Assembly (NCBI GenBank): GCA_024278645.1
Contig: JAJRST010000546.1
Location: forward strand, 1-34,603
Length of the DNA stretch: 34,603 nucleotides
Direction of reading: 5' to 3'
From: a bacterium
GTDB lineage: Bacteria > Zhuqueibacterota > Zhuqueibacteria > Residuimicrobiales > Krinioviventaceae
Made by a program: the position numbers and the translations under genes. The stretch's first letter is position 1. The number at the start of each line of letters is the position of its first letter. Below are positions 3,949-22,090 of the stretch, in pieces. The notes under the pieces are model-generated. The model ran no database searches. It was given only the letters and a program-made list of their open reading frames with translations, and had not been told where the DNA came from.

Positions 3949-3964
3949 TTCGTTCTCCTTAAAA

Positions 3965-4327: not shown

Positions 4328-4550
4328 TGTGGATCGCCTTTCTCTGTTAGGTTTTAGGCTCGAGGGTTTCGTCGTGGATAATGGTAACATAAAAACGACG
4401 GATAGCGTAGCGATTATTTCGAAAAATCTGATTTTATTTAAAGTATTCATTTTGTTCAGGAAAAACAAATACTTTAAAAATTTTGGTAATTTGGCGGATA
4501 TTGCTTAAATTGAACATAATTTTGGTGAACCCGGATTCTGTGAGGAAAAA

Positions 4551-5534: not shown

Positions 5535-5551
5535 TCATCGGGCCTGATTCT

Positions 5552-6679
5552 ATGTCAAAGAAAATAATGATAATCGCCGGCGAGGCCTCCGGCGACCTGC
5601 ACGGCGGCAAACTGGTGACGTCGCTGTTGCAGCAACAGCCGGACGCGGAAATTTTCGGCGTCGGCGGCGACAACATGAAAAAGGCGGGGATGGAATTGCT
5701 GTTTCATGTCGAGGACCTGGCTTTCATGGGGTTTACCGAAGTGATCAAGCATCTCGGCGATATCAAAAAAGTTTTTAATTCACTCATCCGGGAGGCGCAA
5801 GCTCGCAAGCCGGATATCATTGTGCTCATCGACTATCCCGGCTTTAATTTACGTTTCGGTAAAAAGGCAAAATCCCTTGGTTTTCGCATTTTTTATTTTA
5901 TAGCGCCGCAAGTTTGGGCATGGCATCAAAGTCGCGCAAAAAAAATGGCCTCCTTTATCGACCGCATGGCCGTACTATTTGATTTTGAAGTCGACTTTTT
6001 CAAGAGATACGGCATAGATGCTCGTTTTGTCGGCCATCCTCTGCTGGACGGGTTGCAGTTAAAATTATCCGAGACCGGGTTTCGCCGCACGTTTTCATTG
6101 CCGGTCGATGCGCCGCTGCTGGGATTGTTTCCGGGAAGCCGCAACCAGGAGATCGATCAGCTTTTACCGACCATGTTGCAAACGGCGCGTCGGTTGCGCG
6201 AGAAACATGCGCAAATTGTCGTCGCCGTAAGTCAGGCTGATACCATCAGCGACGCCCAAATTGGCGACCACCTTGCCGGATACGAAAATATCGCCGTTAT
6301 CAAAGGCGCGGCTTACGAGTTGATGAATTATTCCCGATCGGCTATGGTGGCTTCGGGCACGGCCACGCTGGAGACGGCCTGTTTTCAGACGCCGTTCGTC
6401 ATTATTTACAAAGTGTCCTCGTTTTCCTATTTTATCGGCAAACGCGTGGTCAAAATTCCTTTCATTGGTCTTGCCAATATTGTCGCCGGCAGGCAAGTTG
6501 TCCAAGAGTTCATTCAAGAAAATGCCTCCCCGGAAAATATTCTTGCGGAAATGGAGAAATGTCTTTTTGACGACGAATACCGCCGACAAAAAAAAGAAGA
6601 TTTGTTGCGAATCAAGCAAAAGCTTGGCGCTCCGGGGGCTTCGGAACAAACGGCGAAACTTGTGCTTGAAATGATTTAA
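5552..6679 (+). CDS. lpxB: Lipid-A-disaccharide synthase
   Basis: IMIIAGEASGDLHGGKLV N-terminus, YFIAPQVWAWHQSR and LFPGSRNQEI motifs characteristic of LpxB. 375 aa. Confidence 0.92.
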   Translation: MSKKIMIIAGEASGDLHGGKLVTSLLQQQPDAEIFGVGGDNMKKAGMELLFHVEDLAFMGFTEVIKHLGDIKKVFNSLIREAQARKPDIIVLIDYPGFNLRFGKKAKSLGFRIFYFIAPQVWAWHQSRAKKMASFIDRMAVLFDFEVDFFKRYGIDARFVGHPLLDGLQLKLSETGFRRTFSLPVDAPLLGLFPGSRNQEIDQLLPTMLQTARRLREKHAQIVVAVSQADTISDAQIGDHLAGYENIAVIKGAAYELMNYSRSAMVASGTATLETACFQTPFVIIYKVSSFSYFIGKRVVKIPFIGLANIVAGRQVVQEFIQENASPENILAEMEKCLFDDEYRRQKKEDLLRIKQKLGAPGASEQTAKLVLEMI

Positions 6680-6695
6680 TTGTTACAACTGATTT

Positions 6696-7361
6696 GTGAT
6701 AATGAATAAAAAAAGAAAAAAAGAAATTCTGCAATATATAGCCATCAAACTGTCGTGGCTGCTCATCCTTGCTTTTGGAAAATTGGCAAGGATAACCGTG
6801 AAAAATCAAAAGCACCATAAAACAGCGCTAAACAGTGGGCATCCCGTTTTGTACATTACCTGGCATGGTAAAATGTTGGCCCCCATTTATGTCATGCGCA
6901 ATTCCAAGATCGTCGCCATGGTCAGCGAGCACGGCGATGGAGAGATCATCGCACAAACGATTCTCAGACTCGGCTACAAGACGGTTCGTGGATCGAGCAC
7001 GCGCGGCGGTCAAAGGGCTTTTCGCGAAATGCTGAAGCTGTTAAAAAACGGGCGTCATTGCACAGTCCTGCCCGATGGTCCGAATGGGCCCCGTTTTGTT
7101 ATGAAGATGGGAGCGATACTTCTCGCTCAGAGATCCGGGGGCTATTTGTTGCCGCTCACTTTTTCCGCCGAGAAGCCAATTGAAATGAATTCCTGGGACA
7201 GGTTTACGCTATGGCGACCGTTCTCGCGAGTGTCGGTCTTGTACGGCAAGCCGATTCTTATTCCACGCAAGTTGAGTCCGGCGCAACTGGAGTACTATCG
7301 AAAGTTTGTCGAGCAGAAAATGCATGACTTGCAGCGAGAGGCGGATGAGTTTTTTGGATAA
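6696..7361 (+). CDS. DUF374 domain protein (lysophospholipid-acyltransferase-like, commonly linked to lpxB/lpxK/waaA)
   Basis: ITWHGKML...SEHGDGEIIA...GSSTRGG...VLPDGPNGPRF resembles DUF374. The track start is GTG 6696; ATG 6702 is an equally good start. The 3' end overlaps lpxK by 17 nt. Confidence 0.75.
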   Translation: MIMNKKRKKEILQYIAIKLSWLLILAFGKLARITVKNQKHHKTALNSGHPVLYITWHGKMLAPIYVMRNSKIVAMVSEHGDGEIIAQTILRLGYKTVRGSSTRGGQRAFREMLKLLKNGRHCTVLPDGPNGPRFVMKMGAILLAQRSGGYLLPLTFSAEKPIEMNSWDRFTLWRPFSRVSVLYGKPILIPRKLSPAQLEYYRKFVEQKMHDLQREADEFFG

Positions 7362-8361
7362 TAAATGGCCGGCCATTCTTTTATGGCCCCTATCCGTCTT
7401 GTACGGTTTTGCTATACGTGTACGAAATTTTTGCTATGACAAGGGTTTGTGTAAAAGCTACACTGTCGACTGCAAAGTGATAAGCGTGGGCAATGTAACC
7501 GTCGGTGGAACCGGAAAGACGCCGACAGTACAATATCTCTTTGAAAAACTGTCGTCGCTTGGCAAACGAGTCGCCATCTTAAGCCGCGGATATGGAAGGA
7601 CGACAAAGGGCGGCGTGCTTGTCTCGGACGGCGAAAAAATATGGTGCACTGCAAGAGAGGCCGGCGATGCACCCTTTCTGTTGGCTTTGTCGTGTTTCGG
7701 CGCTATTGTTGCTGTGGACGAGGATCGCATTCGAATGGCCCGCAAGATCGTCGCAAAGTATTCTCCGGATGTCATTATTCTGGACGATGCATTTCAACAT
7801 CGGAGAATACGGCGGGACCTTGATATTGTGATGATCCGCAGCGGCAAGCCGTTTGGCAACGGTTTTTTGCTGCCGGCGGGTCCGTTGCGAGAACCGTTGC
7901 AAAGTTTGCGACGATCGCATTTGATCCTTGCCAGCGGCAAAGATGATTCCGTTAAAAAGATAACGGCAAAAGAGAGGATTCCAGTCGTCAATTTTCATTA
8001 TAAAGTTCGGGATATTCGGAATAAGCACGGTTACGTTTCAGCGACCGAGTTGTCTGGAAAAGATATCATTGCCTTTTGCGGCATCGCCAATCCGACAAGT
8101 TTTTTGCAAACGCTGGCTAATTTTCATGTGAACATTTTAGACTTTGCAACGTTTCAAGACCATCATCGATACACAGAAAAAGATTTAATGCAGCTTCGTT
8201 TCCGCTCCCAACGCTTGGCATCAAACTATATCATTACAACTGAAAAAGATTGGGTAAAGCTCCCACAGGATGAGCTTGATGATGCGTGGTTGTATGTGCG
8301 CATCGGCATTATCCCGGAAGAGGAACAAGTCATAGTGTCTCGTTTTGAGATGGTTTTTTAA
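7345..8361 (+). CDS. lpxK: Tetraacyldisaccharide 4'-kinase
   Basis: P-loop VGNVTVGGTGKTP, ILSRGYG, and N-terminal WPAILLWPLSVLYG typical of LpxK. I prefer ATG 7345 (MSFLDNKW...) over the track start at 7306 because it gives the family-typical N-terminus. Confidence 0.9.
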   Translation: MSFLDNKWPAILLWPLSVLYGFAIRVRNFCYDKGLCKSYTVDCKVISVGNVTVGGTGKTPTVQYLFEKLSSLGKRVAILSRGYGRTTKGGVLVSDGEKIWCTAREAGDAPFLLALSCFGAIVAVDEDRIRMARKIVAKYSPDVIILDDAFQHRRIRRDLDIVMIRSGKPFGNGFLLPAGPLREPLQSLRRSHLILASGKDDSVKKITAKERIPVVNFHYKVRDIRNKHGYVSATELSGKDIIAFCGIANPTSFLQTLANFHVNILDFATFQDHHRYTEKDLMQLRFRSQRLASNYIITTEKDWVKLPQDELDDAWLYVRIGIIPEEEQVIVSRFEMVF

Positions 8362-8390
8362 AAAGTGTATCAAGATTATACAAAAAACAC

Positions 8391-8419
8391 TTGCGTTATA
8401 TGGTTCAATTTCTTATAAT
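8391..8419 (+). promoter_or_regulatory. Candidate sigma70-type promoter for the sigma54 activator gene
   Basis: TTGCGT (8391-8396), 17-nt spacer, TATAAT (8414-8419), about 30 nt upstream of the ORF start. Confidence 0.5.
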
Positions 8420-8445
8420 GTAGATGCTAACATACAGTTGGTTAA

Positions 8446-9846
8446 TTGGAGATGTTTATTGTGGAAGAAAAAAGAAGACCAAAAATATTGATTGTCGATG
8501 ACGACAAGAATATTTGCAAGATGATTGAGGCAAGTCTTCGAAAAGAGAGAAAGTACGATATAAATACAGCGTTGAGCGGCGAAGCGTGTTTAAAGATTAT
8601 TAAAGAAGAGTTGCCGGATCTTTGCCTGGTTGACATCCAAATGCCGGGCATCGATGGCATCGAAACCCTGAAGCGAATCAAGGAAGAAGATCCTCGCGTG
8701 CCGGTGATCATGATGACAGCGCACGGCACCATCGAGCGCGCGGTGAACTCGATGAAACTCGGCGCCTACGACTTGTTGACAAAGCCGTTCGCGCGCGACC
8801 GCTTGCTGGTTACTGTTCAAAACGCCCTGATCAACAGCTCACTGCAAAGAGAAGTAAGCGAACTGCGTTCAGAGTTGAAAAGCAAATACACTTTTTCGAA
8901 TATTGTCGGTCAAAGCGGCATCATGCAGGATGTCTTTCGGTCGGTAGAAAAAGTTATGGACAGCAATGTAACCGTTTTGATTCAGGGCGAGAGCGGCACC
9001 GGCAAAGAGCTTATTGCGCGGGCGATACACTACCATTCTAAAACGAGAGCGAACAAACCATTTGTCGCCGTCAATTGTTCCGCGTTGCCTGAATCTTTGC
9101 TCGAGAGCGAGCTCTTTGGTCACGAGAAAGGTTCTTTTACGGGCGCCGCGGGACGTCGAATCGGCAAGTTTGAACAGGCCAATGGCGGCACTATTTTTCT
9201 CGATGAGATCGGCTTGATGACGCCGGCAACGCAATCCAAAATTCTGCGCATTCTGCAGGAGCGCGAATTTGAACGAGTCGGCGGCAATGAATTAATAAAG
9301 GTCAATGTTCGCGTCATTTCCGCCACCAATAAAGATCTGGAAGAAGAAATGAAAAACGGAACTTTTCGCGAAGACTTGTTTTATCGCATTTCTGTTTTTC
9401 CGATTAAATTACCGGCCCTTCGTGAGCGCAAGGAAGACATTCCTCTCCTCGCAGCTCATTTCCTGAAAAAATATAATGAACAAGAAGGAAAAGAGGTTGA
9501 CGGCATCTCTTCGGATGCACTGGACCTTTTAATGGCTTATAATTGGCCCGGCAATGTCCGCGAACTTGAGAATGCCATGGAACGCGCCGTTGTGCTTGCC
9601 AACAGCTACGAAATCACAGCCAAAGAGCTGCCGCCTGCTGTCCGCTCACTGGGTGAAAAACGAATATACGAATCCGACAACACGCTGGCTAGTTGGATTG
9701 AAAAGTTAGAAGAGCAGGCGCTGCGTCAAGCATTGCTCGAATGCGAAGGAAATATCTCCAAAACCGCAAAACAGTTAGGCATCGGCAGGGCGACCATCTA
9801 TCGCAAGGCAAAAAAATACGGGCTTCCGATGGTCAAGACGAGTTGA
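8446..9846 (+). CDS. Sigma54-dependent Fis-family response regulator (NtrC class: REC + AAA+ + HTH_8)
   Basis: Canonical receiver (ILIVDDD, LVDIQMPGIDG, MMTAHG, TKPF). Walker A GESGTGKE. Sigma54-contact loop ESELFGHEKGSFTGA. Walker B IFLDEIG. C-terminal ISKTAKQLGIGRATIYRKAKKYG. The start is uncertain (TTG 8446, ATG 8452 or GTG 8461). Confidence 0.93.
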   Translation: MEMFIVEEKRRPKILIVDDDKNICKMIEASLRKERKYDINTALSGEACLKIIKEELPDLCLVDIQMPGIDGIETLKRIKEEDPRVPVIMMTAHGTIERAVNSMKLGAYDLLTKPFARDRLLVTVQNALINSSLQREVSELRSELKSKYTFSNIVGQSGIMQDVFRSVEKVMDSNVTVLIQGESGTGKELIARAIHYHSKTRANKPFVAVNCSALPESLLESELFGHEKGSFTGAAGRRIGKFEQANGGTIFLDEIGLMTPATQSKILRILQEREFERVGGNELIKVNVRVISATNKDLEEEMKNGTFREDLFYRISVFPIKLPALRERKEDIPLLAAHFLKKYNEQEGKEVDGISSDALDLLMAYNWPGNVRELENAMERAVVLANSYEITAKELPPAVRSLGEKRIYESDNTLASWIEKLEEQALRQALLECEGNISKTAKQLGIGRATIYRKAKKYGLPMVKTS

Positions 9847-9872
9847 TTTTCACTTCACGTTTTGTGGTTTAT

Positions 9873-9911
9873 GGGCGAATCCCTTCTTAAGGGTTCGCCC
9901 ATTTTTGTTTT
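9873..9911 (+). terminator. Rho-independent terminator after the activator gene
   Basis: Stem gggcgaa(t)ccc / gggttcgccc with one bulged base, 7-nt loop, followed by atttttgtttt. Confidence 0.6.
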
Positions 9912-10021: not shown

Positions 10022-10036
10022 TGGTATGTAATTTGC
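10022..10036 (+). promoter_or_regulatory. Candidate sigma54 (-24/-12) promoter
   Basis: TGGTATGTAATTTGC versus consensus TGGCACG-N4-TTGC. GG and GC are separated by exactly 10 nt, and only two defined positions differ. It lies directly downstream of a sigma54 activator gene and about 135 nt upstream of the next long ORF. Confidence 0.55.
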
Positions 10037-10105
10037 TTAAAACAGTTCATCAGAAATGCATCGTTTTCTGCCAAGTGTGTGGGCGCCATTTCTGAGAACC
10101 CGCAG

Positions 10106-10171: not shown

Positions 10172-11281
10172 GTGACTCAAATGAAGTTGGGAACAATGGA
10201 GAAAACAAGTTTAGCTCAGTTGGTACGCGATATTTGTGCAGGCGATTATTCCCAGGCACAATTGGTTGAATTCATTAATTTGACTCAGAAAATCTCTCTC
10301 GGATATCTCAAATACCAGGAAATTATTGGTAAGCGAATATCCGGCGAGCGGGTTGATACAACACTAGAGTTGCAAGACCTTGCGGTTGATTGTATTGCAG
10401 AGCTGTTCAGCGGCGATGGAAATGGCAACTTCCCGCAGCTTAAAAAGTATTATGAACCCAAATATGAAGAAACTCAAAATATTGACGACGCCGAGGTTCT
10501 TATTTTAACTCGCCGGTTGGTGGTGCGCAAGACAAAGCAGGAGCTGTCACGAATTTTCCGGGAACGCGATCCGGAGGGCGCCAAAATTGTTCGCAACATA
10601 AAGGTCGCTATTCGGACATCCGAAAAGCTTGCCATGTTCGCTGACTTGGGTAAAGAATATGTTTTTTATAAAAATGGCCTCGAATTAAATCCGAATGAAC
10701 CTGTCGACGTCGATTTGATCGCCGGCTATTTGCGCAGAAAGAACCCCCCCATTCCTGAAGACCTGCTGCACACACGTTTTATTGACATTTATAATCCTTC
10801 CGATTCTGTTTCGAGTTCCATCCGAAAATTGCTGAGGACCGTTCACGATTTTAACGACTATCAGAACTTTCTGCCGATAGAAGTGATCGTAAAATTAATA
10901 CGACGAGTGAAATTCAATGCCGTTAAAGAAAAACTTGCCGCCGATGATTCCGTTCCCACTCCTCTTGATGTGCTGGAAGTCAAAGAGATCGAGAGCTATA
11001 TAGATGTGGTGATGGAAAAAGTCGAAAGAAAAATAAACACACAGTACCTTCGTTCCAATAAACTGGATTATCAACGCGCAGAGATTTATGCCAAAGCTCT
11101 GAGAGATGTTTTAAACGACCTCATCCAAAAAAAGGACAATTCATCGTACTTTAGGAATCTTCGATTCTACTTGCCTGAACTTACGCAGAGAGAATACCGA
11201 CAGAATGAAAGATCGGTGTTCGAATATCTTGCCAAAGTTGCCAAAAGAGAGTTTCGGAAACATTTAAAAGAATTGCTTTAA
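10172..11281 (+). CDS. Hypothetical protein; divergent sigma70/ECF-like factor with a long insertion between region-2-like and region-4-like segments (tentative)
   Basis: The N-terminus LAQLVRDICAGDYSQAQLVEFINLTQKISLGYLKY...LQDLAVDCIAELF...LILTRRLVVRKTKQELSRIF follows the ECF region 2 pattern (L..LV...GD..A...L......Y......D.AQD...E.F......IARN...D..R). The C-terminus LPELTQREYR...YLAKVAKREFRKHLKELL resembles region 4. Start is GTG 10172, or ATG 10181/10196. Coding status is solid; the function is inferred. Confidence 0.55.
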   Translation: MTQMKLGTMEKTSLAQLVRDICAGDYSQAQLVEFINLTQKISLGYLKYQEIIGKRISGERVDTTLELQDLAVDCIAELFSGDGNGNFPQLKKYYEPKYEETQNIDDAEVLILTRRLVVRKTKQELSRIFRERDPEGAKIVRNIKVAIRTSEKLAMFADLGKEYVFYKNGLELNPNEPVDVDLIAGYLRRKNPPIPEDLLHTRFIDIYNPSDSVSSSIRKLLRTVHDFNDYQNFLPIEVIVKLIRRVKFNAVKEKLAADDSVPTPLDVLEVKEIESYIDVVMEKVERKINTQYLRSNKLDYQRAEIYAKALRDVLNDLIQKKDNSSYFRNLRFYLPELTQREYRQNERSVFEYLAKVAKREFRKHLKELL

Positions 11282-11384: not shown

Positions 11385-12056
11385 ATGAAAAAACAAGAAA
11401 CGACCTTCAAAGGTAGTTGTGAGCACAGCAACCTAACGGAATTGCTGTATCTGGGCCAACTTGAAAATGAAGAGGAAAAAAAGCTCGCCCAACTTCATTT
11501 ACAACAGTGCCCTGTTTGCAAGAGGACATTTTCAGAACTTGAGCAACAATATCGATTTATAGAAAAAGAGATTCAAAAACCGGTCACAAATAAAACATTG
11601 GATCTGGCGAAGGAGGTAGGCTCAAAGGATACAAAGTATGGGCTTTTGATTTGTGAACCGGTCGAATCGGCAAAGACGAACAAAAAGGCGGCGCCTTACA
11701 AAGCCAAAGTCCTTTTTACCGCCAATGGCGCCGGAAATACAAAGAATAAAAAACTGGCCGATTTTAATCTAAAGTCTCTACCTGAAGACAGCATTGCTAT
11801 TCGGGCTATGACCGACAAAAAGTGTAATAAACTGTTGTTGTATCTTTGGAGTCCTCAAAATGAAGACTTTGACGGTTGGGAGCTTAAAATTTCGGGAGAG
11901 GCAAAGGCAGTTTTTAATCTGTCAGGCATGTCTCAGATTCCCCTGATGGAAATTGAAGATCTGAATGGAAAAGTGATCTATTTCAAAGAAAGGCAAACGG
12001 CATTCGCATCCGGAAATAGATTTACAAATATAAAGAGTTCAATCACGACTCTGTAA
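11385..12056 (+). CDS. Anti-sigma-factor-like protein with zf-HC2 motif, apparently soluble
   Basis: CEHSNLTELLYLGQLENEEEKKLAQLHLQQCPVCKRTF carries H-x3-C-x2-C (HLQQCPVC) plus an upstream Cys/His pair, as in ZAS-type anti-sigma N-terminal domains. No hydrophobic transmembrane segment is visible in the 223 aa. Confidence 0.6.
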   Translation: MKKQETTFKGSCEHSNLTELLYLGQLENEEEKKLAQLHLQQCPVCKRTFSELEQQYRFIEKEIQKPVTNKTLDLAKEVGSKDTKYGLLICEPVESAKTNKKAAPYKAKVLFTANGAGNTKNKKLADFNLKSLPEDSIAIRAMTDKKCNKLLLYLWSPQNEDFDGWELKISGEAKAVFNLSGMSQIPLMEIEDLNGKVIYFKERQTAFASGNRFTNIKSSITTL

Positions 12057-12072: not shown

Positions 12073-12103
12073 AAAAGCCGGATGCATATCCGGCTTTTTT
12101 TTT
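12073..12103 (+). terminator. Strong rho-independent terminator
   Basis: aaaa-gccgga-tgcata-tccggc followed by T9 (12095-12103). The A-tract/T-tract extends the stem. Confidence 0.85.
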
Positions 12104-12181: not shown

Positions 12182-13954
12182 ATGAACGAGCGCAGCATAC
12201 TTATCGTCGACAGCGACCAAAAGAACCTCATGGTTATGGAAGCAAATTTCCGGGAGGCCTCATTCGTTACGGCAACTGCAAAAAGTGACAATGAAGCTTT
12301 GAGGATCCTTAAAGACGATTCGTTCAACATAGTGCTGTGCGCCCTAAGCGCCCCTAATATTGATGGTTACCAGGTGCTCAAGGAAATTCAGCGAAATCCG
12401 GCAAAAGAGGGGCCGCATGTTATTTTTCTCTCAATTAAAAGCGATATTTGGAATCGAGTCAAAAGCCTGAAGCTAGGGGCGAAGGACTATATTGTCAAGC
12501 CGGTCCACGCAAGCGAAGTTTTGGCCAGGGTCAATATGGTTATCAGGCGGTTGCAGCGAGAGGGGGAAAGGCAAACGTCCGTGAACAACCAAATCAGTGG
12601 ACGTCTGGAAGACCTTGCCGTGATCGACTTGATTGAAATTTTTGGAGCAGAGAAAAAAACGGGTATTTTAACCATTAATAATGAAAACGGTCATAGTGGG
12701 CAAATCGTATTCAACCGGGGGCAGGTTATTAGCACCAACACACAAGCACTGCGATCTGAAGAAGCTGTATATAAAATGATGCATTGGAATCGCGGACGGT
12801 TTTCCATGCTGTTCACGGATGTGCATGTGGAAGATGAATTTACAATAAGCAATATGGGGCTTTTATTGCAAGGAGCCAAAAGGATGGACCTTAGAAATGA
12901 ACTATTGAAACAACTTCCTTCGCTCGAGGCTGTAGTCATCACTACTTCAAATTTTAAAAAAATAACATCTCAGAAAGAGATGAACAGCGAACTCAAGGAG
13001 TTTTTGACTCTCTTTGATGGCGAGAGAACGCTAGGTCGAATTCTTGACGATAGTCATGAAAATGAGATTGTGACATTGAAGAGAATGGTAAAATTATATA
13101 AATTGGGCTTCCTGCATGTCCTTCGAAATTTTTCCAAAGAACGCCCCTTGCAATTCCGATCCGAGCAAGAGGAAGAACATCCGCAATATGTTCCTTTTGA
13201 CGTCTCCGGGGATTTCGAAGATGAGCTAGAGGAAGACGAATCCGCCTCGGAGAGCGATGAACTTCAATCTCGACCGCTTTCGGACTCCGGGGCCGGCGAT
13301 TTCGATTTAAACGACGAGGAAACCTTTCTTGCATCCGACGAGCAAGATGCTTTTAAAAAGAGTCCCCAACCCCGGGAGGATGCTGACGCGGCCGGCCATC
13401 GAGAGGAGCAAAGCGTTACAGACCGATCCGGCGCCGGCAAGAATCTCATTGTGATAAGCACAAAGCCAAAACATCTCAAGCTTTTTATTGAAAACCTGGC
13501 TTCTGATGTTGAAAAAACCGACGTCAAACCGAATGCGGCAAACATATACTTGGGGGCCGTAAAGTTGCGAGGCGGCGCCAGCGTTAATGTACTCGGTATG
13601 ACCCCGGATGAGGCGGTGACGGATATGATGCTCCATTTTTCCAAACTTACCCTTGGTTGTATGTTGCTCATCGACAGCGCCTCGGCGAATTGGAACTATC
13701 ACAGGTATCTCTACAAAACATTGCGCAAGAAACTGAATGTGCCTATTCTCATTGTTTGCATCGATGGCGAGCATGAGATAGATTTGCAATCCAAAAAAAT
13801 ACGCGACCAGATGGAAATTGATAAAGATACGCCCGTGCGCTTTATTTCCGCAATTGATCCCAACAGCGTACGTCGCGTGCTTTTCACTTTGCTGAATGCT
13901 TCTGCAAATGAAAAGATGCCTGAACCCCAAAGAGAAAGCTTTGCGACAAAGTGA
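12182..13954 (+). CDS. Pseudo-receiver (REC) - DUF4388/PATAN - acidic linker - degenerate Ras/MglA-like GTPase-fold fusion protein
   Basis: REC is aa 5-125, with Ala54 (GCC 12341-12343) where CheY has Asp57 (IVLCALSAPNIDG vs FVISDWNMPNMDG); the conserved Lys (IVKPV) is present. The DUF4388 signature is LEDLAVIDLIEIFGAEKKTGILTINNENGHSGQIVFNRGQVI...EEAVYKMMHWNRGRFSM. An Asp/Glu-rich linker spans aa ~326-415. The C-terminal ~155 aa have GTPase-like strand/loop order but no GxxxxGK[ST] (LIVISTKPKHLKLF). Confidence 0.75.
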   Translation: MNERSILIVDSDQKNLMVMEANFREASFVTATAKSDNEALRILKDDSFNIVLCALSAPNIDGYQVLKEIQRNPAKEGPHVIFLSIKSDIWNRVKSLKLGAKDYIVKPVHASEVLARVNMVIRRLQREGERQTSVNNQISGRLEDLAVIDLIEIFGAEKKTGILTINNENGHSGQIVFNRGQVISTNTQALRSEEAVYKMMHWNRGRFSMLFTDVHVEDEFTISNMGLLLQGAKRMDLRNELLKQLPSLEAVVITTSNFKKITSQKEMNSELKEFLTLFDGERTLGRILDDSHENEIVTLKRMVKLYKLGFLHVLRNFSKERPLQFRSEQEEEHPQYVPFDVSGDFEDELEEDESASESDELQSRPLSDSGAGDFDLNDEETFLASDEQDAFKKSPQPREDADAAGHREEQSVTDRSGAGKNLIVISTKPKHLKLFIENLASDVEKTDVKPNAANIYLGAVKLRGGASVNVLGMTPDEAVTDMMLHFSKLTLGCMLLIDSASANWNYHRYLYKTLRKKLNVPILIVCIDGEHEIDLQSKKIRDQMEIDKDTPVRFISAIDPNSVRRVLFTLLNASANEKMPEPQRESFATK

Positions 13955-15156
13955 GCTACCAGACTTCATTTCACATATTGGTTTTGGACAAGCTTTCTGT
14001 AGAAGTTGAGCGACTGTTGCAACTCTTAAAAGACAGCGGTTACAAGGTCACCCATACTGCGGATTCCCAGGAGGCGTTGCGGCTTTGCCTGGCAAGCGCC
14101 CCGGACTTGATCATTGTCAATATTGATGAAAGAGACAGGGAAAACATTGATTTTTTTCGACAAGCCAAGAGTCATTTTTCCACGCGCTCGACGCCGATTA
14201 TCATAACAACCGAAGCTGCTGACCATCGCAAGCGGGTCGAGTACATTGAGATGGGGGCGGACGATTTGGTGTTAAAGCCTTATTATCCTGAAGAGGTTGT
14301 CGCCAGAGTGGGCAACATTTTTCAAGACTATAAAAGCCCTCTTATTTCAAAAACTGTCGAGCGCGGCTTTGTGGGCAATCTTGGTGAAATGGACCTGATC
14401 GACCTGATTCAAACGATGGAGCTTGGCGGGAAGTCGGGGGTTATTCATCTCAATCGAGGCGATAAGGAAGGCCAGGTTTATATTTATAAAGGCAAAATCG
14501 TCGACGCGGTTGTCGAAGATTATAATTCAGTCGAGCGGGCTTTTCTGCACATGCTTACGTGGATTAACGGGACTTTTTATGTGATTTTCCAAGATGTGGC
14601 GGTCAACAAGCCGTTGACGGACAATAACCAGGAATTATTCGACGAGGCGACAAAAATTATAGATCAATGGCGAAAGGTGACCGGAGATCTGCCATCGCTT
14701 CATACGCAACTTGTTGCCGTGAGCGACAAACCGGCTCATTCGTTGGACTACCAGGAAAAGCAGATGCTCGCTGCTTTTAAGGAACCGCGCACAATTTTGC
14801 AGGCGATTGATCACAGCGAATATGACGACATTGCCGGCTTGAAGATCATAAAATCCTTGTTGGAAATGGGCTTGTTGATCGAACAGGAAGTTTCATACAG
14901 CGAAGAAAAAAATAAAGCCAGTTTGTCGCATTTAAACGGGCTTGGGCCGCGCCGATTCAAAAACAAATATTCGCATATTTTTGCCATTTTTCAAAGAAAT
15001 AAAAAGGGCCGGGACGAATTGACGCCGCCTCGCACCTCTGTCGCCGGCGCTGCTGCTGAAATGCAGCAGATTGTCGCGCCGAAAAATAAAATTCATAATC
15101 GCATTCGCCTGACAAAGGCAGAACTGTTATTGATTCGTCAGAAACTTGGCGCCTGA
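13951..15156 (+). CDS. REC-like - DUF4388/PATAN domain protein (paralogue of the N-terminal two-thirds of the preceding gene)
   Basis: The GTG start overlaps the upstream stop (GTGA). The receiver-like N-terminus keeps T and K (IIITTEA, LVLKPY), but the acceptor region reads LIIVNIDERD (Asn57, with Asp two residues later). DUF4388 signature: LGEMDLIDLIQTMELGGKSGVIHLNRGDKEGQVYIYKGKIVDA...ERAFLHMLTWINGTFYV. Confidence 0.75.
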   Translation: MSYQTSFHILVLDKLSVEVERLLQLLKDSGYKVTHTADSQEALRLCLASAPDLIIVNIDERDRENIDFFRQAKSHFSTRSTPIIITTEAADHRKRVEYIEMGADDLVLKPYYPEEVVARVGNIFQDYKSPLISKTVERGFVGNLGEMDLIDLIQTMELGGKSGVIHLNRGDKEGQVYIYKGKIVDAVVEDYNSVERAFLHMLTWINGTFYVIFQDVAVNKPLTDNNQELFDEATKIIDQWRKVTGDLPSLHTQLVAVSDKPAHSLDYQEKQMLAAFKEPRTILQAIDHSEYDDIAGLKIIKSLLEMGLLIEQEVSYSEEKNKASLSHLNGLGPRRFKNKYSHIFAIFQRNKKGRDELTPPRTSVAGAAAEMQQIVAPKNKIHNRIRLTKAELLLIRQKLGA

Positions 15157-15157
15157 A

Positions 15158-15670
15158 ATGTCGTTTTTAAGCATACAAAAAGATACACATCGTATCGGCG
15201 AGTTTATCGTCGCCGGCCCCTCGTTGACATTGCAGAAGAGGTTTATTACGCATCTGTGTAATGAAGTTATCATCACCAATAACAACACGGTGTTTGGCAG
15301 AAGCAAGGTGACCGACGAATTGCAACTGTTTTTTTACGGCATTGGCGAAAAGGAGCAATATGTTGATTTTGCGTGGGACCTCCTGGCGCCGAAAATGCTC
15401 GGCTATATTCTGGTTTTCAACTGGTATGATGGCAACGAATTTTCAAGCGCTCAACAGTTGCTGGACGAGTTGTCGTCGCAAATCGATTGCCACGGCATTG
15501 TGGTCGGGGATGTCTCCGAAATGTCCCTGCCCATTGACCCGAAAATTTACGAACAGGGTTTTTCTTTCTCCCCCAAACTTTATTTTACGCTTTGGGATTC
15601 AACAATAAAATCGGATGCAAAAAATGTATTGAAAATTCTGGTGGATTCGTTAATCAACCATTTTGAGTAA
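15158..15670 (+). CDS. Small GTPase-fold-like protein with degenerate nucleotide-binding motifs (tentative)
   Basis: ATG 15158 lies 1 nt after the upstream stop. EFIVAGPSLTLQKRFI sits where MglA-type GTPases have KIVYYGPGLSGKTT. LFFYGIGEKEQ corresponds to DxxGQ, GYILVFNWYD to the G..FV.DS strand, and IVVGDVSE to NKxD. Similar in layout to the C-terminal module of the 590-aa protein. Confidence 0.5.
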   Translation: MSFLSIQKDTHRIGEFIVAGPSLTLQKRFITHLCNEVIITNNNTVFGRSKVTDELQLFFYGIGEKEQYVDFAWDLLAPKMLGYILVFNWYDGNEFSSAQQLLDELSSQIDCHGIVVGDVSEMSLPIDPKIYEQGFSFSPKLYFTLWDSTIKSDAKNVLKILVDSLINHFE

Positions 15671-15672
15671 AG

Positions 15673-16068
15673 ATGATAGAAAGCTATTCAAATACAAGCG
15701 TCGCCGTTCACCCCGGCGTCCAGTTGCAGTTTTTACGCTACCTGCTGATGGGCTTGTCTCCGAACCCGTTAATTGAAAATATGGAGGCGGTCGAGTTGGC
15801 GGCGGTTTATGATTATATCTGGGAAAAGGCGCTGGAAATAGGCATTCGCGTCAAGGGCGATCGTTTTTCGCAAACCGATATGTTGAAAAGGCTGAAATCG
15901 GTTGAACAGTATAAAATGGAAGTTGACTGCACCGAACCGGGGCAGCGATGTATATCCGAAGAGTGCCTCCTTAAAGAGGCCGCTTGCGTTAAAACAAGGT
16001 TAAAGGAACAATTTAACCGACTTTATAATATGGTTTCGGAATACTTGGGCATTGAATTTAAAGCATAA
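15673..16068 (+). CDS. Hypothetical 131-aa protein, likely helical, with a C-x6-C-x4-C-x6-C cluster
   Basis: The start is 2 nt after the upstream stop, which suggests translational coupling. Cys cluster: CTEPGQRCISEECLLKEAAC. I recognise no family. Confidence 0.5.
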   Translation: MIESYSNTSVAVHPGVQLQFLRYLLMGLSPNPLIENMEAVELAAVYDYIWEKALEIGIRVKGDRFSQTDMLKRLKSVEQYKMEVDCTEPGQRCISEECLLKEAACVKTRLKEQFNRLYNMVSEYLGIEFKA

Positions 16069-16078
16069 AATAATTTTC

Positions 16079-17026
16079 ATGCTGCAACGCCGCCCCGGCA
16101 TTGAATTGTTTGTACTGTTTCTTGTCGCTTGTAATCTTATGTTCTCTTCTTCTCTTCTTTCCCAGAAAAATGAAAACCTTACAATGGAACGGGGTTCCTT
16201 CCTTATTCATTTTGCGGCGTCGGACAGCGCTTATGCCAGACAGGCCGGCGACATTCTCGCCAAGGCCTATGAAGAAATCTCTTTCGATCTTGACATTCAA
16301 ACGGATGAAACGTTCAACGTTTATATTATGCCGACCCGCCGCAGCTTTTTGGACGCCCTGGAAGGGAAATTGCCAAAATGGACCGGCGCATTCGCCGTTC
16401 CGTCGCAGCAGCTTATGGTTATAAAATCGCCAAGATGGGACAGAAGCGAGAATTACCGACATACGCTTGTGCACGAGTTGCTGCACCTGCTTGTCCACAA
16501 TTATCTTGGCGTGCGCGATTTGCCTCGTTGGCTCGATGAAGGGATGGCGATTTTCTATTCCGGCGAGGATCGCTGGAAGACGGATGTCGCCGTATCAAAG
16601 GCGCTGGCCACCGGCTCCGTCATTCCCCTGTCCGAAGTGGATGATGTTTTAAAGTATCATAGAGCCAAAGCGGATTTGGCCTACCAACAAAGCTTCTCCG
16701 CCGTGTTTTATTTGTTGACCACTTATGACATCGAGGCCTTGCGGGAGATTATTTACAGCCTCAAAGAGGGCCTCGGCATTGATGAAGCATTTCGCCGGGC
16801 AACGGGAAGCAGTTTCAATGACTTTGAGGAAGAGTGGCGCAACTATATAAGGAGGACGCACAAATGGTTGTGGCTCTATGAAATTGATAATTATGTATGG
16901 GTTTTTATTCTGGCGCTCACTGTGTTTGCCTTTATTCTCCGTCATTTTCACAACAAACGGGTCGAACGCAACTGGCGGAATGATGATCTTTTTGAGCCGT
17001 TGCAGGACGAACCGGATGATCCGTAA
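16079..17026 (+). CDS. Membrane-anchored peptidase MA (HEXXH) family metalloprotease
   Basis: HELLH at 16472-16486, followed by PRWLDEGMAIFYSGE (Peptidase_MA_2-like third ligand region). N-terminal signal/anchor IELFVLFLVACNLMF. C-terminal TM helix YVWVFILALTVFAFIL, then an acidic tail. ATG 16079 avoids overlap; the track start at 16052 is also possible. Confidence 0.7.
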   Translation: MLQRRPGIELFVLFLVACNLMFSSSLLSQKNENLTMERGSFLIHFAASDSAYARQAGDILAKAYEEISFDLDIQTDETFNVYIMPTRRSFLDALEGKLPKWTGAFAVPSQQLMVIKSPRWDRSENYRHTLVHELLHLLVHNYLGVRDLPRWLDEGMAIFYSGEDRWKTDVAVSKALATGSVIPLSEVDDVLKYHRAKADLAYQQSFSAVFYLLTTYDIEALREIIYSLKEGLGIDEAFRRATGSSFNDFEEEWRNYIRRTHKWLWLYEIDNYVWVFILALTVFAFILRHFHNKRVERNWRNDDLFEPLQDEPDDP

Positions 17027-17067: not shown

Positions 17068-17982
17068 ATGAATACCTGGAAGGACAAATTAGAATATAAA
17101 GCGCTTCTTGCTGTTGTCAGAATCGTTCATTCCTTATCGCCCCAGGATGCCGTCAAACTCGGGCGGCGCCTCGGCGACTTTGCCCACTATTTCATTCCCA
17201 TTCGAAAATCGGTGGTTTATGAAAATCTGGCAAATGCCCTGCCTGAAAAATCGTCCAAAGAAAGAAAAAGAATAGCCCGCTTGACGTTTCAGAGTTTCGG
17301 ACAAACATTTATCGAATTTTTACGAAACCCTGTGCGTTCGAGAGAAGAGACGCTCGAACGAGTTGTTTTTCATAACAAGGCGTTGTTGCAGGAGGCGTAC
17401 AATGCCGGCAATGGCGTTTTGTTGATGAGCGGTCATTTTGGCAGTTGGGAGATGATGGCCTGCGCCGTGACCGCTTTGGGATACCCGCTTGTGGTCATTG
17501 CGCGGCCGCAGCGCAACCGGCTGGTCGATGCCCTGATCAATCAATATCGTCAGGCGGCGGGGATTGAAACCGTATCGCTCGGCATGGGCGTGCGCGCCTT
17601 TTTGCGGGCGTTGAGGCAGAATAAATTTGTCGCCATCCTCGCGGATCAGGATGCGCATCGTGAAGGCGTTTTTGTCGACTTTATTGGCTTGCCCTCGTCC
17701 ACCGCTCCCGGGCCGGCCGTATTCGCATTGAAGACCGGAGCTGATATCGTCTTTGTCACCTCCGTCCTTCGGCGTGATGGAAAATATGACGCCTATTTCG
17801 AAAAGATCGAAAGCAAGGATTTGTACGGCGTCACGGATGAAAATATTCGCATCATCACCCAAAGACATGCCAAAAAACTGGAAGAGAAAATACGTCGCTG
17901 GCCGCACCACTGGTTCTGGATGCACAGAAGGTGGAAGACGACCCAGAGAGACGGGCGACGAGTCAATAAAGAGGAAGAATAA
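17068..17982 (+). CDS. Lipid A biosynthesis late acyltransferase (LpxL/LpxM/HtrB family)
   Basis: LLMSGHFGSWEM (the H-x4-D/E catalytic motif of this family), ILADQD, and the C-terminal WPHHWFWMHRRWK typical of Lip_A_acyltrans. Confidence 0.8.
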   Translation: MNTWKDKLEYKALLAVVRIVHSLSPQDAVKLGRRLGDFAHYFIPIRKSVVYENLANALPEKSSKERKRIARLTFQSFGQTFIEFLRNPVRSREETLERVVFHNKALLQEAYNAGNGVLLMSGHFGSWEMMACAVTALGYPLVVIARPQRNRLVDALINQYRQAAGIETVSLGMGVRAFLRALRQNKFVAILADQDAHREGVFVDFIGLPSSTAPGPAVFALKTGADIVFVTSVLRRDGKYDAYFEKIESKDLYGVTDENIRIITQRHAKKLEEKIRRWPHHWFWMHRRWKTTQRDGRRVNKEEE

Positions 17983-17984
17983 AA

Positions 17985-18929
17985 TTGAAGATCAGCGGGT
18001 TTTCATTTGTTCGAAACGGCGTTAAGCTTTATTATCCTGTTGTTGAAGCAATTAAATCCATTCTACCGATCGTGGACGAATTTGTTATAGCCGTAGGCAA
18101 GGGCGATGAGGACGATGACACTCGCGACAGAATCGTCGAAATCGGCGACCCTCGAATTAAGATCATTGATACGGTTTGGGATGAGAAGCATTACAAAGGC
18201 GGCATTGTAAATGCTATCCAGACGGACATTGCCATGAAGTCTTGCACGGGCGACTGGCTTTTTTATCTGCAGGCGGATGAAGTTGTGCATGAAAAAGATT
18301 TGCCGGTGATTGAATCTCGATGCCGGGAATTGTTGGACGATGAAAAGGTGGAGGGTCTGCTTTTTAGGTACAACCACTTTTGGGGCGACTATGAGCACTA
18401 TCACTCCGGTCATGGGTGGTATAAGAACGAGATCAGGATCGTGCGTAATAAACCGGAGATACATTCCTGGCAGAGCGCTCAAAGTTTTCGTCGTTTTGAC
18501 TATTATGATAATCCCAGACAACCCGACGGTCACCATAAACTGCTTGTTGCTCGCGTTGACGCTGAAATCTATCATTATGGCTGGGTGCGCCCTCCGCATT
18601 TTATGCAGAATAAACGACGCTCCCTGGATGCCGTCCACTGGGGGGTGAAAAAGGCGGAGCACTATTATAACAACGCCCCCGCCGAGTTTGACTATGGCCC
18701 GTTAAATTTGCTGAGCCGATTTGAGGGGACGCATCCTCAGGTGATGCAAGATATGATCGCCAAGATGGATTGGAAAGACAAGTTGCAATACTCGGGCCGC
18801 CCCGATCCCGCACGCGAACCGCATAAACACGAAAAGTGGCGCAACAGAATTCTCTCTTTCATCGAACGAACAGTCTTGCACGGAAGGGAGCTTGGAGGCT
18901 TTCATAATTACACGTTGGTGAAAAGATGA
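17985..18929 (+). CDS. Glycosyltransferase (GT-A fold, family 2-like)
   Basis: TTG start with GAGGA RBS. ISGFSFVRNG..YPVVEAIKSILPIVDEFVIAVG and GDWLFYLQADEVVHE (acidic DxD-like motif). Confidence 0.55.
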   Translation: MKISGFSFVRNGVKLYYPVVEAIKSILPIVDEFVIAVGKGDEDDDTRDRIVEIGDPRIKIIDTVWDEKHYKGGIVNAIQTDIAMKSCTGDWLFYLQADEVVHEKDLPVIESRCRELLDDEKVEGLLFRYNHFWGDYEHYHSGHGWYKNEIRIVRNKPEIHSWQSAQSFRRFDYYDNPRQPDGHHKLLVARVDAEIYHYGWVRPPHFMQNKRRSLDAVHWGVKKAEHYYNNAPAEFDYGPLNLLSRFEGTHPQVMQDMIAKMDWKDKLQYSGRPDPAREPHKHEKWRNRILSFIERTVLHGRELGGFHNYTLVKR

Positions 18930-20041
18930 CGTGGAAAATAAACACAACTTTTATTACAACGGTTGACCACAATGTGGGCGATGATTTTGTCCGCGAAGGA
19001 TTAAAATATCTGCTCAAGCGTTGTTTCAAGGGGGCGGCGCTGCACTTTGAAAATATTCACAAGCACTCCCCCATTACGTCCCGTTTTGGCTTTGAAAAGC
19101 GGAAAAACCTGAAAAAAGCGAACAAGATTGACAGAAGAATGCCCTTATGGATGACCAAAGATCGAATTTTACAGGCGGATATTGTTATACAGAGCGGCGC
19201 CCCGGTTTATTGGTGTCATGACGCCGTCAAAAGCCATTGTTATCAAAACGAGTGGTTTTCGCCGCTTATTCGGCGCCGTTTTTTGCGCAACAAGAACGCG
19301 CGCTTGCTGAACCTTGCGGCGGGCTCCTGCCAGACATATTTTTCAGACGGCTCTGAATTCTGCCCCGCCTGCAACGCATATATCCAAGAGTTCTATGATT
19401 TGGCGGCAGTGACAACCCTGCGCGACAAGGTCGCCGCCAATATTTTGCACAACATCGGGCTTCATGCGCCGCTTGTGCCGTGCAGCTCCATTTTTGCTCC
19501 GGACGAATACGGCCTCAAGCGGGGCGAAGGCGATTACGCCGTCGTCAACTACATGCCGCTGGCGGCGCATTATGACTTTGGCCAGAATATTGACGCCAGG
19601 CAATGGCGGGACATTTTTTCGCGGTTTTATTTCGAATTGAAAAAAGAGGAGCGCGTCGTCTTTGCATGTCACGATTTGAATGAAAAAAAAGCCGCCTTGA
19701 GCATCGACCCCAATGCCGACATCTTTTTCGCGGAAAACGACTTTGTCGCCTATATGAAGTTTTACTCGCGCGCGAAATTTGGCGTCATGAATCGCGTCCA
19801 TGGCGCTTTTATGATCGCTGCATTCGGTCGCCCCTCCTTTGTCATTGGCAATGACACGCGAGCGCGCATGGTGGAGGAGATTGGCTTGCAGAGCGCTTTT
19901 GTTCACGATGTCTCTTTTGATCTGTTGATGCAGAAAAAAACGTATTTACAAAAAGGGGGCGATTCCTACCGGGATCGTTTTGCGGCGATAAAAGAAAAGG
20001 CCTACGCGGGTTATTTAAACGCCCTGGCCATTTTGGAATGA
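18926..20041 (+). CDS. Polysaccharide pyruvyl transferase family protein
   Basis: ATGA overlap with the upstream gene. N-terminal NVGDDFVREG and C-terminal NRVHGAFMIAAFGRPSFVIGNDTRARMVEEIGL resemble PS_pyruv_trans. Confidence 0.55.
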   Translation: MTWKINTTFITTVDHNVGDDFVREGLKYLLKRCFKGAALHFENIHKHSPITSRFGFEKRKNLKKANKIDRRMPLWMTKDRILQADIVIQSGAPVYWCHDAVKSHCYQNEWFSPLIRRRFLRNKNARLLNLAAGSCQTYFSDGSEFCPACNAYIQEFYDLAAVTTLRDKVAANILHNIGLHAPLVPCSSIFAPDEYGLKRGEGDYAVVNYMPLAAHYDFGQNIDARQWRDIFSRFYFELKKEERVVFACHDLNEKKAALSIDPNADIFFAENDFVAYMKFYSRAKFGVMNRVHGAFMIAAFGRPSFVIGNDTRARMVEEIGLQSAFVHDVSFDLLMQKKTYLQKGGDSYRDRFAAIKEKAYAGYLNALAILE

Positions 20042-20127
20042 GTTGGTAAAATGCAATGGTTGACTGTATATAAAAAGCTTGGTCATCGTTTTAAAAAACG
20101 GCGTTTCCTGAGCACCTTTGTTCTGGT

Positions 20128-21246
20128 GTGGTTTTTTCACCTCAAAGCCCAGTTAAAAAAAAGAGTCGCCAAATTCATCCCGATACGCTGCTAATAGTTC
20201 GTTTCGATCTCATTGGCGACTATATTTTGTTTCGGAATTTTCTGACGTTCATTCGCAAGAGCGCGGCGTATCAAAATTATCGCATCACCTTGTGCGGCAA
20301 CGTTGTGTTTCGCAATTTGGCGGAAAGCCTGGACGCCGGGTTCGTCGATGACTTTATTTGGGTGGATCGGACGCGCTTTATCAAGGACAAGGCTTACCAT
20401 TACAAGGTGTTGAAAAACATCCACGACCGAGGTTTTGATGTGGTTGTGCAACCGACGTTTTCGCGGGAGATCTACGGAGACCTGCTTGTCAATGCTTCGC
20501 GAGCAAGGCGGCGCATTGGCGTGGACGGCGACTTGACGAATCAATCTGAGGCTCAAAAAAAGATCGCCGACAGCTTTTATACAAAACTCATTCGGGTCGA
20601 ACCGTCTCCCATGTTTGAGTTTTTTCGCAACAGGGAAATTGTGGAAAAGATAATCGAAGAGCCGATTCCCTTGGGGCGGCCGCGTATGGATCTGCCGCAC
20701 GCCGACGCGCCGAGCCTGGTGTCGGGCGAATATGCCGTCCTTGCGCCCGGCGCCAGCCACCGGAGCAAGCAATGGGAAGATTTTCATCGAATCGCCGATT
20801 ACCTCGCCGATCGCTATAATCTCAAAATTGTCCTGGCGGGTCGCGGCAAGCTCAACAGAAAGGCGATCCAAAGAGTTTTGCAAAAATCCACTGCATCCGA
20901 AGTGATCAACTTGTGCGACAGGACATCATTAATGGAGGCCGCATACTTGTTGGCAAGGGCGCGTCTTGTCGTGTCCAATGACACCGCCGCAGTGCATCTG
21001 GCCGCGGTTCTTGGCGTGCGCACGGTGTGCGTTTCCAGCGGCACGCACCTTTTTCGCTTTAACAATTATCCGGAAGATTTTGGCTTTCGCATTCGTTTTA
21101 TTTTTCCCCCGCAGATGGAAGACCTGCGGGCGACGGAGGACTGGAAACAATACTCGGCAGAATACAGCACTCATTTTGACATCAACTCCATTCCGACGAC
21201 GAGAGCCATTTGCGCCATTGACGAGGTGATGAATGTTGACAACTGA
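20128..21246 (+). CDS. Glycosyltransferase family 9 (LPS heptosyltransferase-like); the N-terminus may be frameshifted
   Basis: LLIVRFDLIGDYILFRNFL and SNDTAAVHLAAVLGVRTVCV are GT9 hallmarks. The only in-frame start is GTG 20128. See the finding on ATG 20051 and the A8 tract. Confidence 0.8.
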   Translation: MVFSPQSPVKKKSRQIHPDTLLIVRFDLIGDYILFRNFLTFIRKSAAYQNYRITLCGNVVFRNLAESLDAGFVDDFIWVDRTRFIKDKAYHYKVLKNIHDRGFDVVVQPTFSREIYGDLLVNASRARRRIGVDGDLTNQSEAQKKIADSFYTKLIRVEPSPMFEFFRNREIVEKIIEEPIPLGRPRMDLPHADAPSLVSGEYAVLAPGASHRSKQWEDFHRIADYLADRYNLKIVLAGRGKLNRKAIQRVLQKSTASEVINLCDRTSLMEAAYLLARARLVVSNDTAAVHLAAVLGVRTVCVSSGTHLFRFNNYPEDFGFRIRFIFPPQMEDLRATEDWKQYSAEYSTHFDINSIPTTRAICAIDEVMNVDN

Positions 21247-21994: not shown

Positions 21995-22090
21995 CCCGGC
22001 ATTGGCAAGCAAAGGAAAAACACCGAGCCGTTACGCCTTGCCCTTTCGCAAAAGAGGCAATGCGCTTGCGCAGGGTGAAAGATAAAGTAC

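Follow-up and report, generated by a model that had tools for sequence, protein, structure and literature searches.

Putative receiver-PATAN adaptors paired with predicted pseudo-GTPase modules in fused and split form in a bacterial gene cassette

Locus organization

The DNA analyzed here, referred to as the window, is a whole 34,603-bp contig (JAJRST010000546.1) from the metagenome-assembled genome of an uncultured KSB1/Calditrichota-type bacterium. Three consecutive forward-strand genes on it encode proteins of 590, 401 and 170 amino acids (aa), termed C590, D401 and E170. C590 joins a receiver domain (REC), a PATAN domain, a helical segment, an acidic linker and a C-terminal module resembling a small GTPase (hereafter G-like module), and D401 and E170 carry the same order as two separate proteins. 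Sequence profiles and structure predictions indicate that these are two paralogous units whose G domains have lost their nucleotide motifs, and we propose that they act as nucleotide-independent adaptors. The features that carry this argument are as follows, each with coordinates in the window, strand, identity and supporting evidence.

12182..13954, +, C590, fused protein with REC, PATAN, helical segment, acidic linker and putative pseudo-GTPase (open reading frame (ORF) list, Pfam, AlphaFold, Foldseek, hhalign)
12197..12532, +, C590 receiver domain, aa 6-117 (Pfam, CheY alignment)
12596..12892, +, C590 PATAN domain, PF14332 DUF4388/PatA_N, aa 139-237 (Pfam)
12893..13129, +, C590 conserved helical segment, aa 238-316, including LFDGERTLGRI...LYKLGFL, common to D401 (BLASTP, ortholog alignment)
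13130..13438, +, C590 acidic linker, aa 317-419 (composition)
13439..13915, +, C590 putative pseudo-GTPase module, aa 420-578, predicted Ras-like fold, no Walker A, DxxG/GTPGQ or NKxD (AlphaFold, Foldseek, hhalign)
13951..15156, +, D401, split-copy adaptor with REC, PATAN, helical segment and tail (ORF list, Pfam, BLASTP)
13975..14310, +, D401 receiver domain, aa 9-120 (Pfam, CheY alignment)
14374..14673, +, D401 PATAN domain, aa 142-241 (Pfam)
14674..14886, +, D401 helical segment, aa 242-312, homologous to that of C590 (BLASTP, ortholog alignment)
15097..15153, +, D401 C-terminal motif N.I.LTKAELLLIRQKLG, aa 383-401 (ortholog alignment)
15158..15670, +, E170, stand-alone putative pseudo-GTPase, predicted Ras-like fold (orthologs, AlphaFold, Foldseek, profiles)

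The stop of C590 and the start of D401 overlap in GTGA, and the E170 ATG at 15158 lies one base past the D401 stop. We place the E170 start at this ATG and reject an upstream TTG because all 17 orthologs are 169-170 aa long and begin at the equivalent Met.

Receiver-PATAN halves

Both long proteins match the Pfam receiver model (PF00072; 75.2 bits in C590 and 52.9 bits in D401, cutoff 30.2) and the PATAN model (PF14332; 57.4 and 59.4 bits, cutoff 25). They also match each other by BLASTP (92 bits, E 2e-24, 25% identity over 284 residues), in an alignment spanning residues 29-311 of C590 and 33-309 of D401, which runs past the Pfam domains into the helical segment. On this alignment evidence, C590 aa 1-316 and D401 are paralogs. 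The helical segment is kept in every ortholog of C590 and of D401. A winged-helix or DUF742-like identity for it was considered and left, with a single weak HTH_47 match (E 0.026, 1/16 sequences) and no PDB match.

The C590 linker (aa 317-419) consists of 31% Asp+Glu, is poorly conserved and measures between 70 and 236 aa in different orthologs; it is probably a disordered tether. The tail of D401 (aa ~334-401, window 14950-15153, + strand) contains two short motifs kept in all loci, KYSHIFSIFQR and N.I.LTKAELLLIRQKLG. The second is retained even in the most distant loci, and neither has a counterpart in C590. These tail motifs are candidate docking peptides, or a docking helix, for E170.

G-like modules: fold and mutual homology

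In single-sequence scans, E170 and the C590 tail matched no Pfam or NCBIfam model, and the hits of single-sequence phmmer against PDB (ORC2 and others) were discarded as chance matches. The C590 tail alone recovered nothing in a word-indexed homolog search because this module evolves fast, and C590 orthologs were recovered via the conserved helical segment. Ortholog profiles were more informative when searched against PDB. E170 retrieved Rab3 (E 9e-4, or 1.9e-6 when the wider family alignment was used), and the C590 module retrieved SR-beta (E 0.0099) and, more weakly, Arl6 and EngB.

AlphaFold models of E170 and the C590 module (predicted local distance difference test (pLDDT) 74 and 80, predicted template modelling (TM) score 0.76 and 0.78) both follow the order b1-a1-b2-b3-a2-b4-a3-b5-a4-b6-a5 of a canonical six-stranded G domain. 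Foldseek searches of PDB with the E170 model returned Rab5, Rab1b, KRAS and Rap2A (E ~1e-6, TM up to 0.70; 801 hits at E<=1e-3). The C590 module returned Rab-like 2il1, Rab33, Rab1b, Rab27a and, at rank 6, Myxococcus xanthus MglA (6izw_A) (E ~1e-7; 850 hits at E<=1e-3). The top matches of both were Ras-superfamily proteins only, with Rab, Ras, Arf and MglA in the lead. By these predictions, E170 and the C-terminal module of C590 have the Ras-like small-GTPase fold. A preliminary description, made from the sequence of this DNA, had called the modules GTPase-like on the expectation of a P-loop NTPase or flavodoxin-like fold; that assignment stands, within the Ras superfamily, and a flavodoxin- or receiver-like fold is excluded by the Foldseek results and by the profile matches to Rab, SR-beta and Arl. 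The same description had given the domain order of the 590-aa protein, on which Pfam, composition, AlphaFold and Foldseek agree.

Between the two modules themselves, BLASTP found no true match. Shallow profiles aligned them by hhalign with 55% probability (E 1.2e-4), and deeper profiles of the C590 module and the E family reached 98.7% (E 1.6e-16, 158 columns). The proposal that the 401-aa and 170-aa proteins repeat the 590-aa architecture as a duplicated, split module is thereby upheld in both halves, by BLASTP for C590 and D401, and for the C-terminal module and E170 with deep profiles only.

Loss of nucleotide motifs

An exhaustive search of 1.84 billion proteins with the E170-family profile yielded 81 cluster representatives, ~50 of which share the E170 pattern when aligned. 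At the weak end of the hit list stand intact small GTPases bearing GxxxAGK[ST], TTVAMDFG, FGTPGQxRFxFMW and NKQD. These intact relatives match Pfam ATP_bind_1, Ras and Arf, and their profile detects Sec4, Arl8, Rab and Ras in PDB (E 1e-10 to 1e-7), with Sec4, Arl8 and Rab, and not MglA, as the best matches. In profile-profile comparisons, the intact relatives align with the E family at 99.85% (E 6e-31) and with the C590 modules at 98.0% (E 2.3e-13). These alignments mark the G-like modules as descendants of live small GTPases.

Aligned to the intact relatives, the defining motifs are replaced one after another. The G1 motif GPYxAGK[ST]xFI reads GPSLTLQKRFI in E170 and STKPKHLKLFI in C590, and the G3 motif FGTPGQE reads YGIGEKE and LGMTPDE. 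At G4, ANKQD reads VGDVSE in E170 (family pattern [AG][DN][VIL]) and CIDGEHE in C590, the NKQD columns falling on GDVS and IDGE, respectively. The preliminary description had reported that both modules lack GxxxxGK[ST] at the P-loop position and have a replaced NKxD; it had placed both motifs correctly, and comparison with the intact relatives uncovered no misaligned Walker A. Walker A is absent from all 67 E-family proteins and all 39 C590 modules, and present in 7 intact relatives; as the 67-protein set was defined by motif absence, the telling point is that every hit stronger than ~1e-7 lacks it. Residues at the P-loop columns are variable in the pseudo members. Switch I is ~12-17 residues shorter in both dead lineages, and the b1-a1 loop has 2-3 residues in both AlphaFold models.

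What the E family conserves is a core of F46-G47, Y60-G61 and W73-D74...K79-x-L81-G82 (FG(R), YG, WDLxAxKxLG), which maps to the interswitch strands and the switch II helix. The alignments thus put the loss of G1, G3 and G4 across both the E family and the C590 modules, in line with the earlier designation of the modules as pseudo-GTPases with a real GTPase ancestry.

Support for MglA-type ancestry is indirect and comes from GTPGQ and the ATP_bind_1 matches of the intact relatives, together with the rank-6 MglA structure. GTPGQ is the G3 motif of MglA groups 2-5 (PMC4316618, Wuichet & Sogaard-Andersen 2014). No PATAN genes were found near the genes of the intact relatives, whose contigs are short. 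Two distant intact relatives (P0120 and P0125) carry TIR, HEAT or nSTAND1 NTPase domains as fusions; because of these fusions, the live branch of this GTPase group would also have been recruited into conflict- or signalling-type multidomain proteins.

Could the two G domains have been gained and inactivated independently in C590 and E170, leaving the REC-PATAN halves as the only true duplication? This would suit the missing BLASTP match between the modules, and E170 indeed aligns far more strongly with the intact GTPases (E 6e-31) than with the C590 module (E 1.6e-16). However, by score the C590 module is closer to the E family than to the intact relatives (1.6e-16 versus 2.3e-13), the two modules have the shortened switch I and the same motif losses in common, and both units co-occur in every locus examined. 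The asymmetry is explained by faster evolution of the C590 module, which is 23-52% identical where E170 is 58-88% identical. We consider independent origin unlikely and retain duplication of the whole receiver-PATAN-G-domain unit.

Receiver acceptor residues

Alignment with CheY places Ala54 of C590 at the phospho-acceptor position Asp57, and Asn57 of D401 at the same position with Asp59 two residues on, exactly as first described. In C590, D10, S85 and K107 correspond to CheY D12, T87 and K109, and S11 occupies the second place of the acidic pair (D12, D13). D401 has Lys14 at the CheY Asp13 position, and the equivalents of T/S87 and K109 are retained in both proteins. An acceptor Asp together with a complete acidic pair is thus found neither in C590 (A54, S11) nor in D401 (N57, K14). 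The acceptor codons are GCC in C590 (Ala54, 12341-12343) and AAT in D401 (Asn57, 14119-14121), each one base from an Asp codon.

Among orthologs, the C590 acceptor is Asp in the 9 closest and Glu in 19 more distant ones and in 4 distant loci. The D401 acceptor is Asn in the window and in locus L001, Asp in 6 orthologs and Glu in the 4 distant loci. Most D401 orthologs also carry Lys at the CheY Asp13 position, and CheY D13K is active without phosphorylation. Because the closest relatives carry Asp, both receivers of this genome must have shed the acceptor recently. Comparison across the family marks the acceptor as dispensable, under relaxed constraint, and not as uniformly absent. The preliminary label of pseudo-receivers therefore holds for this genome (A54, N57) and is not fixed in the family, where orthologs carry Asp or Glu. 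Such relaxed constraint fits receivers that may work without phosphotransfer.

Cassette conservation

Three further features define the operon and its surroundings:

12073..12098, +, terminator-like hairpin with an 11-bp stem followed by a T run, dividing the A369-B223 gene pair from the C590 operon
15673..16068, +, F131, conserved co-operonic protein (ortholog alignment)
16052..17026, +, Peptidase_MA_2 protein (MA peptidase), last gene of the conserved cassette, overlapping the end of F131 (Pfam, synteny)

Two bases separate E170 from F131. C590, D401, E170, F131 and the MA peptidase look like one operon because the genes overlap or abut and the strong terminator-like hairpin sits just upstream of C590. 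No sigma54 promoter was found upstream of C590 in 8 loci, and no further paralogs were found elsewhere in the window. We dropped the idea of an anti-phage defence system, for which PADLOC gave no meaningful matches.

The order A369, B223, C590, D401, E170, F131, MA peptidase is repeated in close relatives, and the cassette is retained in loci L003-L009 and in the distant L010, L015, L016/17 and L018 (E170 identity 27-32%). The distant loci encode a long REC-PATAN protein (590-720 aa), a short one (388-408 aa) and a small pseudo-GTPase-like protein (160-173 aa), and their long proteins all end with a comparable module that has no P-loop. A ~130-aa protein and the MA peptidase follow directly downstream in 3/4 distant lineages; the exception is L010, which lacks the 130-aa gene and has the peptidase two genes farther downstream. 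E170 is the best conserved of the three proteins. Its orthologs (n = 17) are 58-88% identical and every ORF is intact; in the fetched loci, E170 shows 61-86% identity against 46-54% for full-length C590 and 23-52% for the C590 module alone. The cassette always lies among genes for lipid A and lipopolysaccharide (LPS) (LpxB, DUF374, LpxK, lipid A acyltransferase, GT9/GT2 and an MsbA-like ABC exporter), and this envelope-gene neighbourhood recurs in relatives. Conservation of the cassette and of E170 across loci rules out decay and marks the system as functional and lineage-specific.

An invariant WEK..E.G...G..F motif characterises the F131 family, together with four cysteines (C86, C93, C98, C105) that are nearly invariant and are lost in one distant ortholog (L016). 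The cysteines suggest a putative metal site. F131 was also considered as an MglB/Roadblock analogue, and this found no support.

Interpretation

We hypothesize that the locus holds two paralogous adaptor units of one lineage-specific (KSB1/Calditrichota) family. Each unit would combine a receiver-like domain, a PATAN domain and the helical segment with a Ras-superfamily (MglA-type) G domain stripped of its nucleotide and catalytic motifs. The gene arrangement indicates one pairing in cis and one in trans: in C590, the halves would be joined by the long acidic tether, and in the other unit D401 and E170 would be separate products of translationally coupled genes. The G-like domains would no longer bind or hydrolyse GTP and would serve as constant protein-binding modules through the retained interswitch and switch II surface (FG, YG, WDLxAxKxLG). 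By gene-fusion logic and translational coupling, D401 would bind E170 as the halves of C590 associate. Any control that exists would have passed from a GTP cycle to the REC-PATAN part, or would depend on which partners are available, and in this genome it would not require phosphorylation. The target would be an envelope-related process, as the constant MA-type peptidase and the association with lipid A/LPS genes suggest. Such an adaptor role matches precedent, because known PATAN regulators bind other proteins and MglA/MglB genes neighbour PATAN genes. We assign a probability of about 70% to the overall picture of two paralogous REC-PATAN-helical adaptors paired with dead G domains in a nucleotide-independent role; our confidence in the biological target is much lower.

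Several points weigh against this picture. In 17/67 E-family members, the column of the canonical P-loop Lys does contain a Lys, and nucleotides may, judged from sequence, be bound through non-canonical residues; that the modules are 'scaffolds rather than enzymes', as the preliminary description had it, would follow from the lost motifs. The E170 model was built on a shallow 17-sequence alignment and exceeded pLDDT 70 in only the best of five models. Neither the helical segment nor F131 has a Pfam or PDB match or an assignable fold. The closest orthologs carry the acceptor Asp, and phosphorylation may matter in these relatives. We infer the D401-E170 interaction and its interface from gene organization, and the presumed cell-envelope link comes from gene neighbourhood.

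Pressed further, the first of these points would make the G-like modules nucleotide-binding switches with a non-canonical pocket, in which a GTP-dependent cycle persists, comparable to atypical GTPases that bind and do not hydrolyse. The fold is kept, the switch II helix is strongly conserved, and a deviant G4 is already tolerated in MglA groups 2-3 (PMC4316618). Yet GK[ST] occurs in no member and the P-loop columns vary, the Gly/Gln of G3 and the Lys/Asp of G4 are all replaced, and both the shortened switch I and the 2-3-residue b1-a1 loop of the models speak against such a pocket, which makes a surviving GTP cycle improbable in our judgement, even more so than independent origin. The lack of Pfam and NCBIfam matches and the fast evolution of the C590 module might raise the suspicion that the C-terminal modules have no function and are either remnants in decay or wrongly called ORFs, but this is hardly credible given intact, constant-length ORFs across dozens of metagenome lineages, an E170 that is 58-88% identical in close relatives and detectable at 27% with the same synteny, and translationally coupled genes.

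Comparison with known systems

Nucleotide-independent REC-PATAN/G-domain adaptors share parts with several described systems. PATAN genes beside MglA/MglB-type genes have already been described (PMC4316618), and Makarova et al. 2006, as cited there, is a further source for the PATAN-MglA neighbourhood. As in the MglA family, the modules have a predicted Ras-superfamily fold, their nearest intact relatives carry GTPGQ and match ATP_bind_1, Ras and Arf, and PATAN proteins adjoin. Unlike in the MglA family, G1, G3 and G4 are lost, switch I is short and one of the two copies forms part of a REC-PATAN protein. The ORFs of the window that were scanned with Pfam include no MglB/Roadblock gene. E170 and the C590 module thus fall outside the functional small-GTPase family: the fold is present and the three defining motifs are absent.

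The PatA-type regulators of cyanobacteria (PatA, PixG, PixE, LsiR) also combine PATAN (PF14332) with a CheY-like receiver, and cyanobacterial PATAN-REC regulators act by protein-protein contact, for example with the pilus motor PilB1, and not by DNA binding. Theirs, however, is the order PATAN then REC, whereas here REC precedes PATAN and is followed by the additional helical segment and G-like module; moreover, the receivers of this genome lack the acceptor Asp, and the window contains no pilus genes. Because the domain order is reversed, C590 and D401 are not PatA-type regulators. The actinobacterial conservon (CvnA-D) similarly embeds an MglA-family GTPase in a multi-gene cassette with two-component-type parts. 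In contrast to the modules described here, CvnD is an active GTPase, and the histidine kinase, Roadblock and DUF742 components of the conservon were not detected in the window.

In Myxococcus, the pseudo-receiver protein FrzS and RomR are polarity proteins with receiver domains that act with MglA. MglA and FrzS are covered in PMC11580455. The resemblance lies in the use of a receiver or pseudo-receiver as a localisation or interaction module in a small-GTPase circuit; unlike C590 and D401, FrzS and RomR have no PATAN domain or G-domain fusion, and their MglA is a live switch. Eukaryotic pseudo-GTPases, such as CENP-M and the pG domains of p190RhoGAP, have lost the nucleotide motifs and retain the G-domain fold for structural or binding purposes. 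The Ras-like domain of the dynein light intermediate chain is another case (PMC4359372). By analogy, the C590 and E170 modules would work most like a pseudo-GTPase, although the known examples are eukaryotic and of unrelated origin. Our literature search found no link of pseudo-GTPases to MglA-type proteins or PATAN. The preliminary description had called the arrangement unusual and poorly described in bacteria; this holds for the dead and fused PATAN/G-domain form, which appears to be undescribed so far, and not for the PATAN-MglA/MglB neighbourhood.

Significance

MglA-family Ras-like GTPases set bacterial polarity and motility, and PATAN regulators steer pilus motors. The cassette offers a natural case in which a G domain under strong selection, physically fused to REC-PATAN, has lost all nucleotide motifs, and the fusion predicts a direct interaction between PATAN adaptor and G domain. 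The evolutionary and structural case is solid. The cassette would extend to bacteria the pseudo-GTPase concept, which has so far been essentially eukaryotic. The acceptor series of Asp, Glu, Ala and Asn in both receivers also provides a clean route to learning when receivers stop needing phosphorylation.

A bolder, tentative and on balance doubtful scenario is that an MglA-type polarity switch has turned nucleotide-free throughout this lineage. The two dead G domains would provide permanent docking surfaces, one on a tether and the other free, and switching would have passed to REC-PATAN adaptors with an interchangeable acceptor (Asp/Glu/Ala/Asn), the whole spatially organising outer-membrane/LPS assembly or a membrane MA peptidase. 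If true, it would mean that a pseudo-GTPase signalling module had been described in a prokaryote for the first time.

Neighbouring genes

The upstream part of the window (1-9846) encodes a UDP-GlcNAc 2-epimerase, a Wza-like exporter with SLBB domains, LpxB, DUF374 and LpxK. Downstream of the cassette (17068-26773) lie genes for a lipid A acyltransferase, a pyruvyl transferase, GT9 and GT2 transferases and an MsbA-like ABC exporter.

A369 (10172-11281, + strand) is the most conserved protein of the neighbourhood, with 82-86% identity where C590 has 46-54%, and 44-64% in distant loci. Searches of Pfam, NCBIfam and PDB returned no match for it. B223 (11385-12056, + strand) has an invariant H38-x3-C42-x2-C45 plus Cys12, resembling the zinc-binding motif of ZAS-type anti-sigma factors. 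Its sole match is a weak one to NCBIfam 'antisigma' (E 0.1), and it has no obvious transmembrane segment. A369 as the sigma-factor partner of the ZAS-like B223 was rejected for want of Pfam or PDB support. A sigma54-type promoter, TGGTAT-N5-TTTGCT, lies at 10022-10037 (+ strand) between a terminator hairpin (9871-9902) and A369. The pattern itself is not enriched in the window, and the element also occurs 5' of A369 orthologs in 7/8 loci, distant ones included. Because this element recurs upstream of A369 and a gene for an NtrC-like sigma54 activator (8446-9846) adjoins, the arrangement suggests that A369-B223 may be the target operon of this activator.

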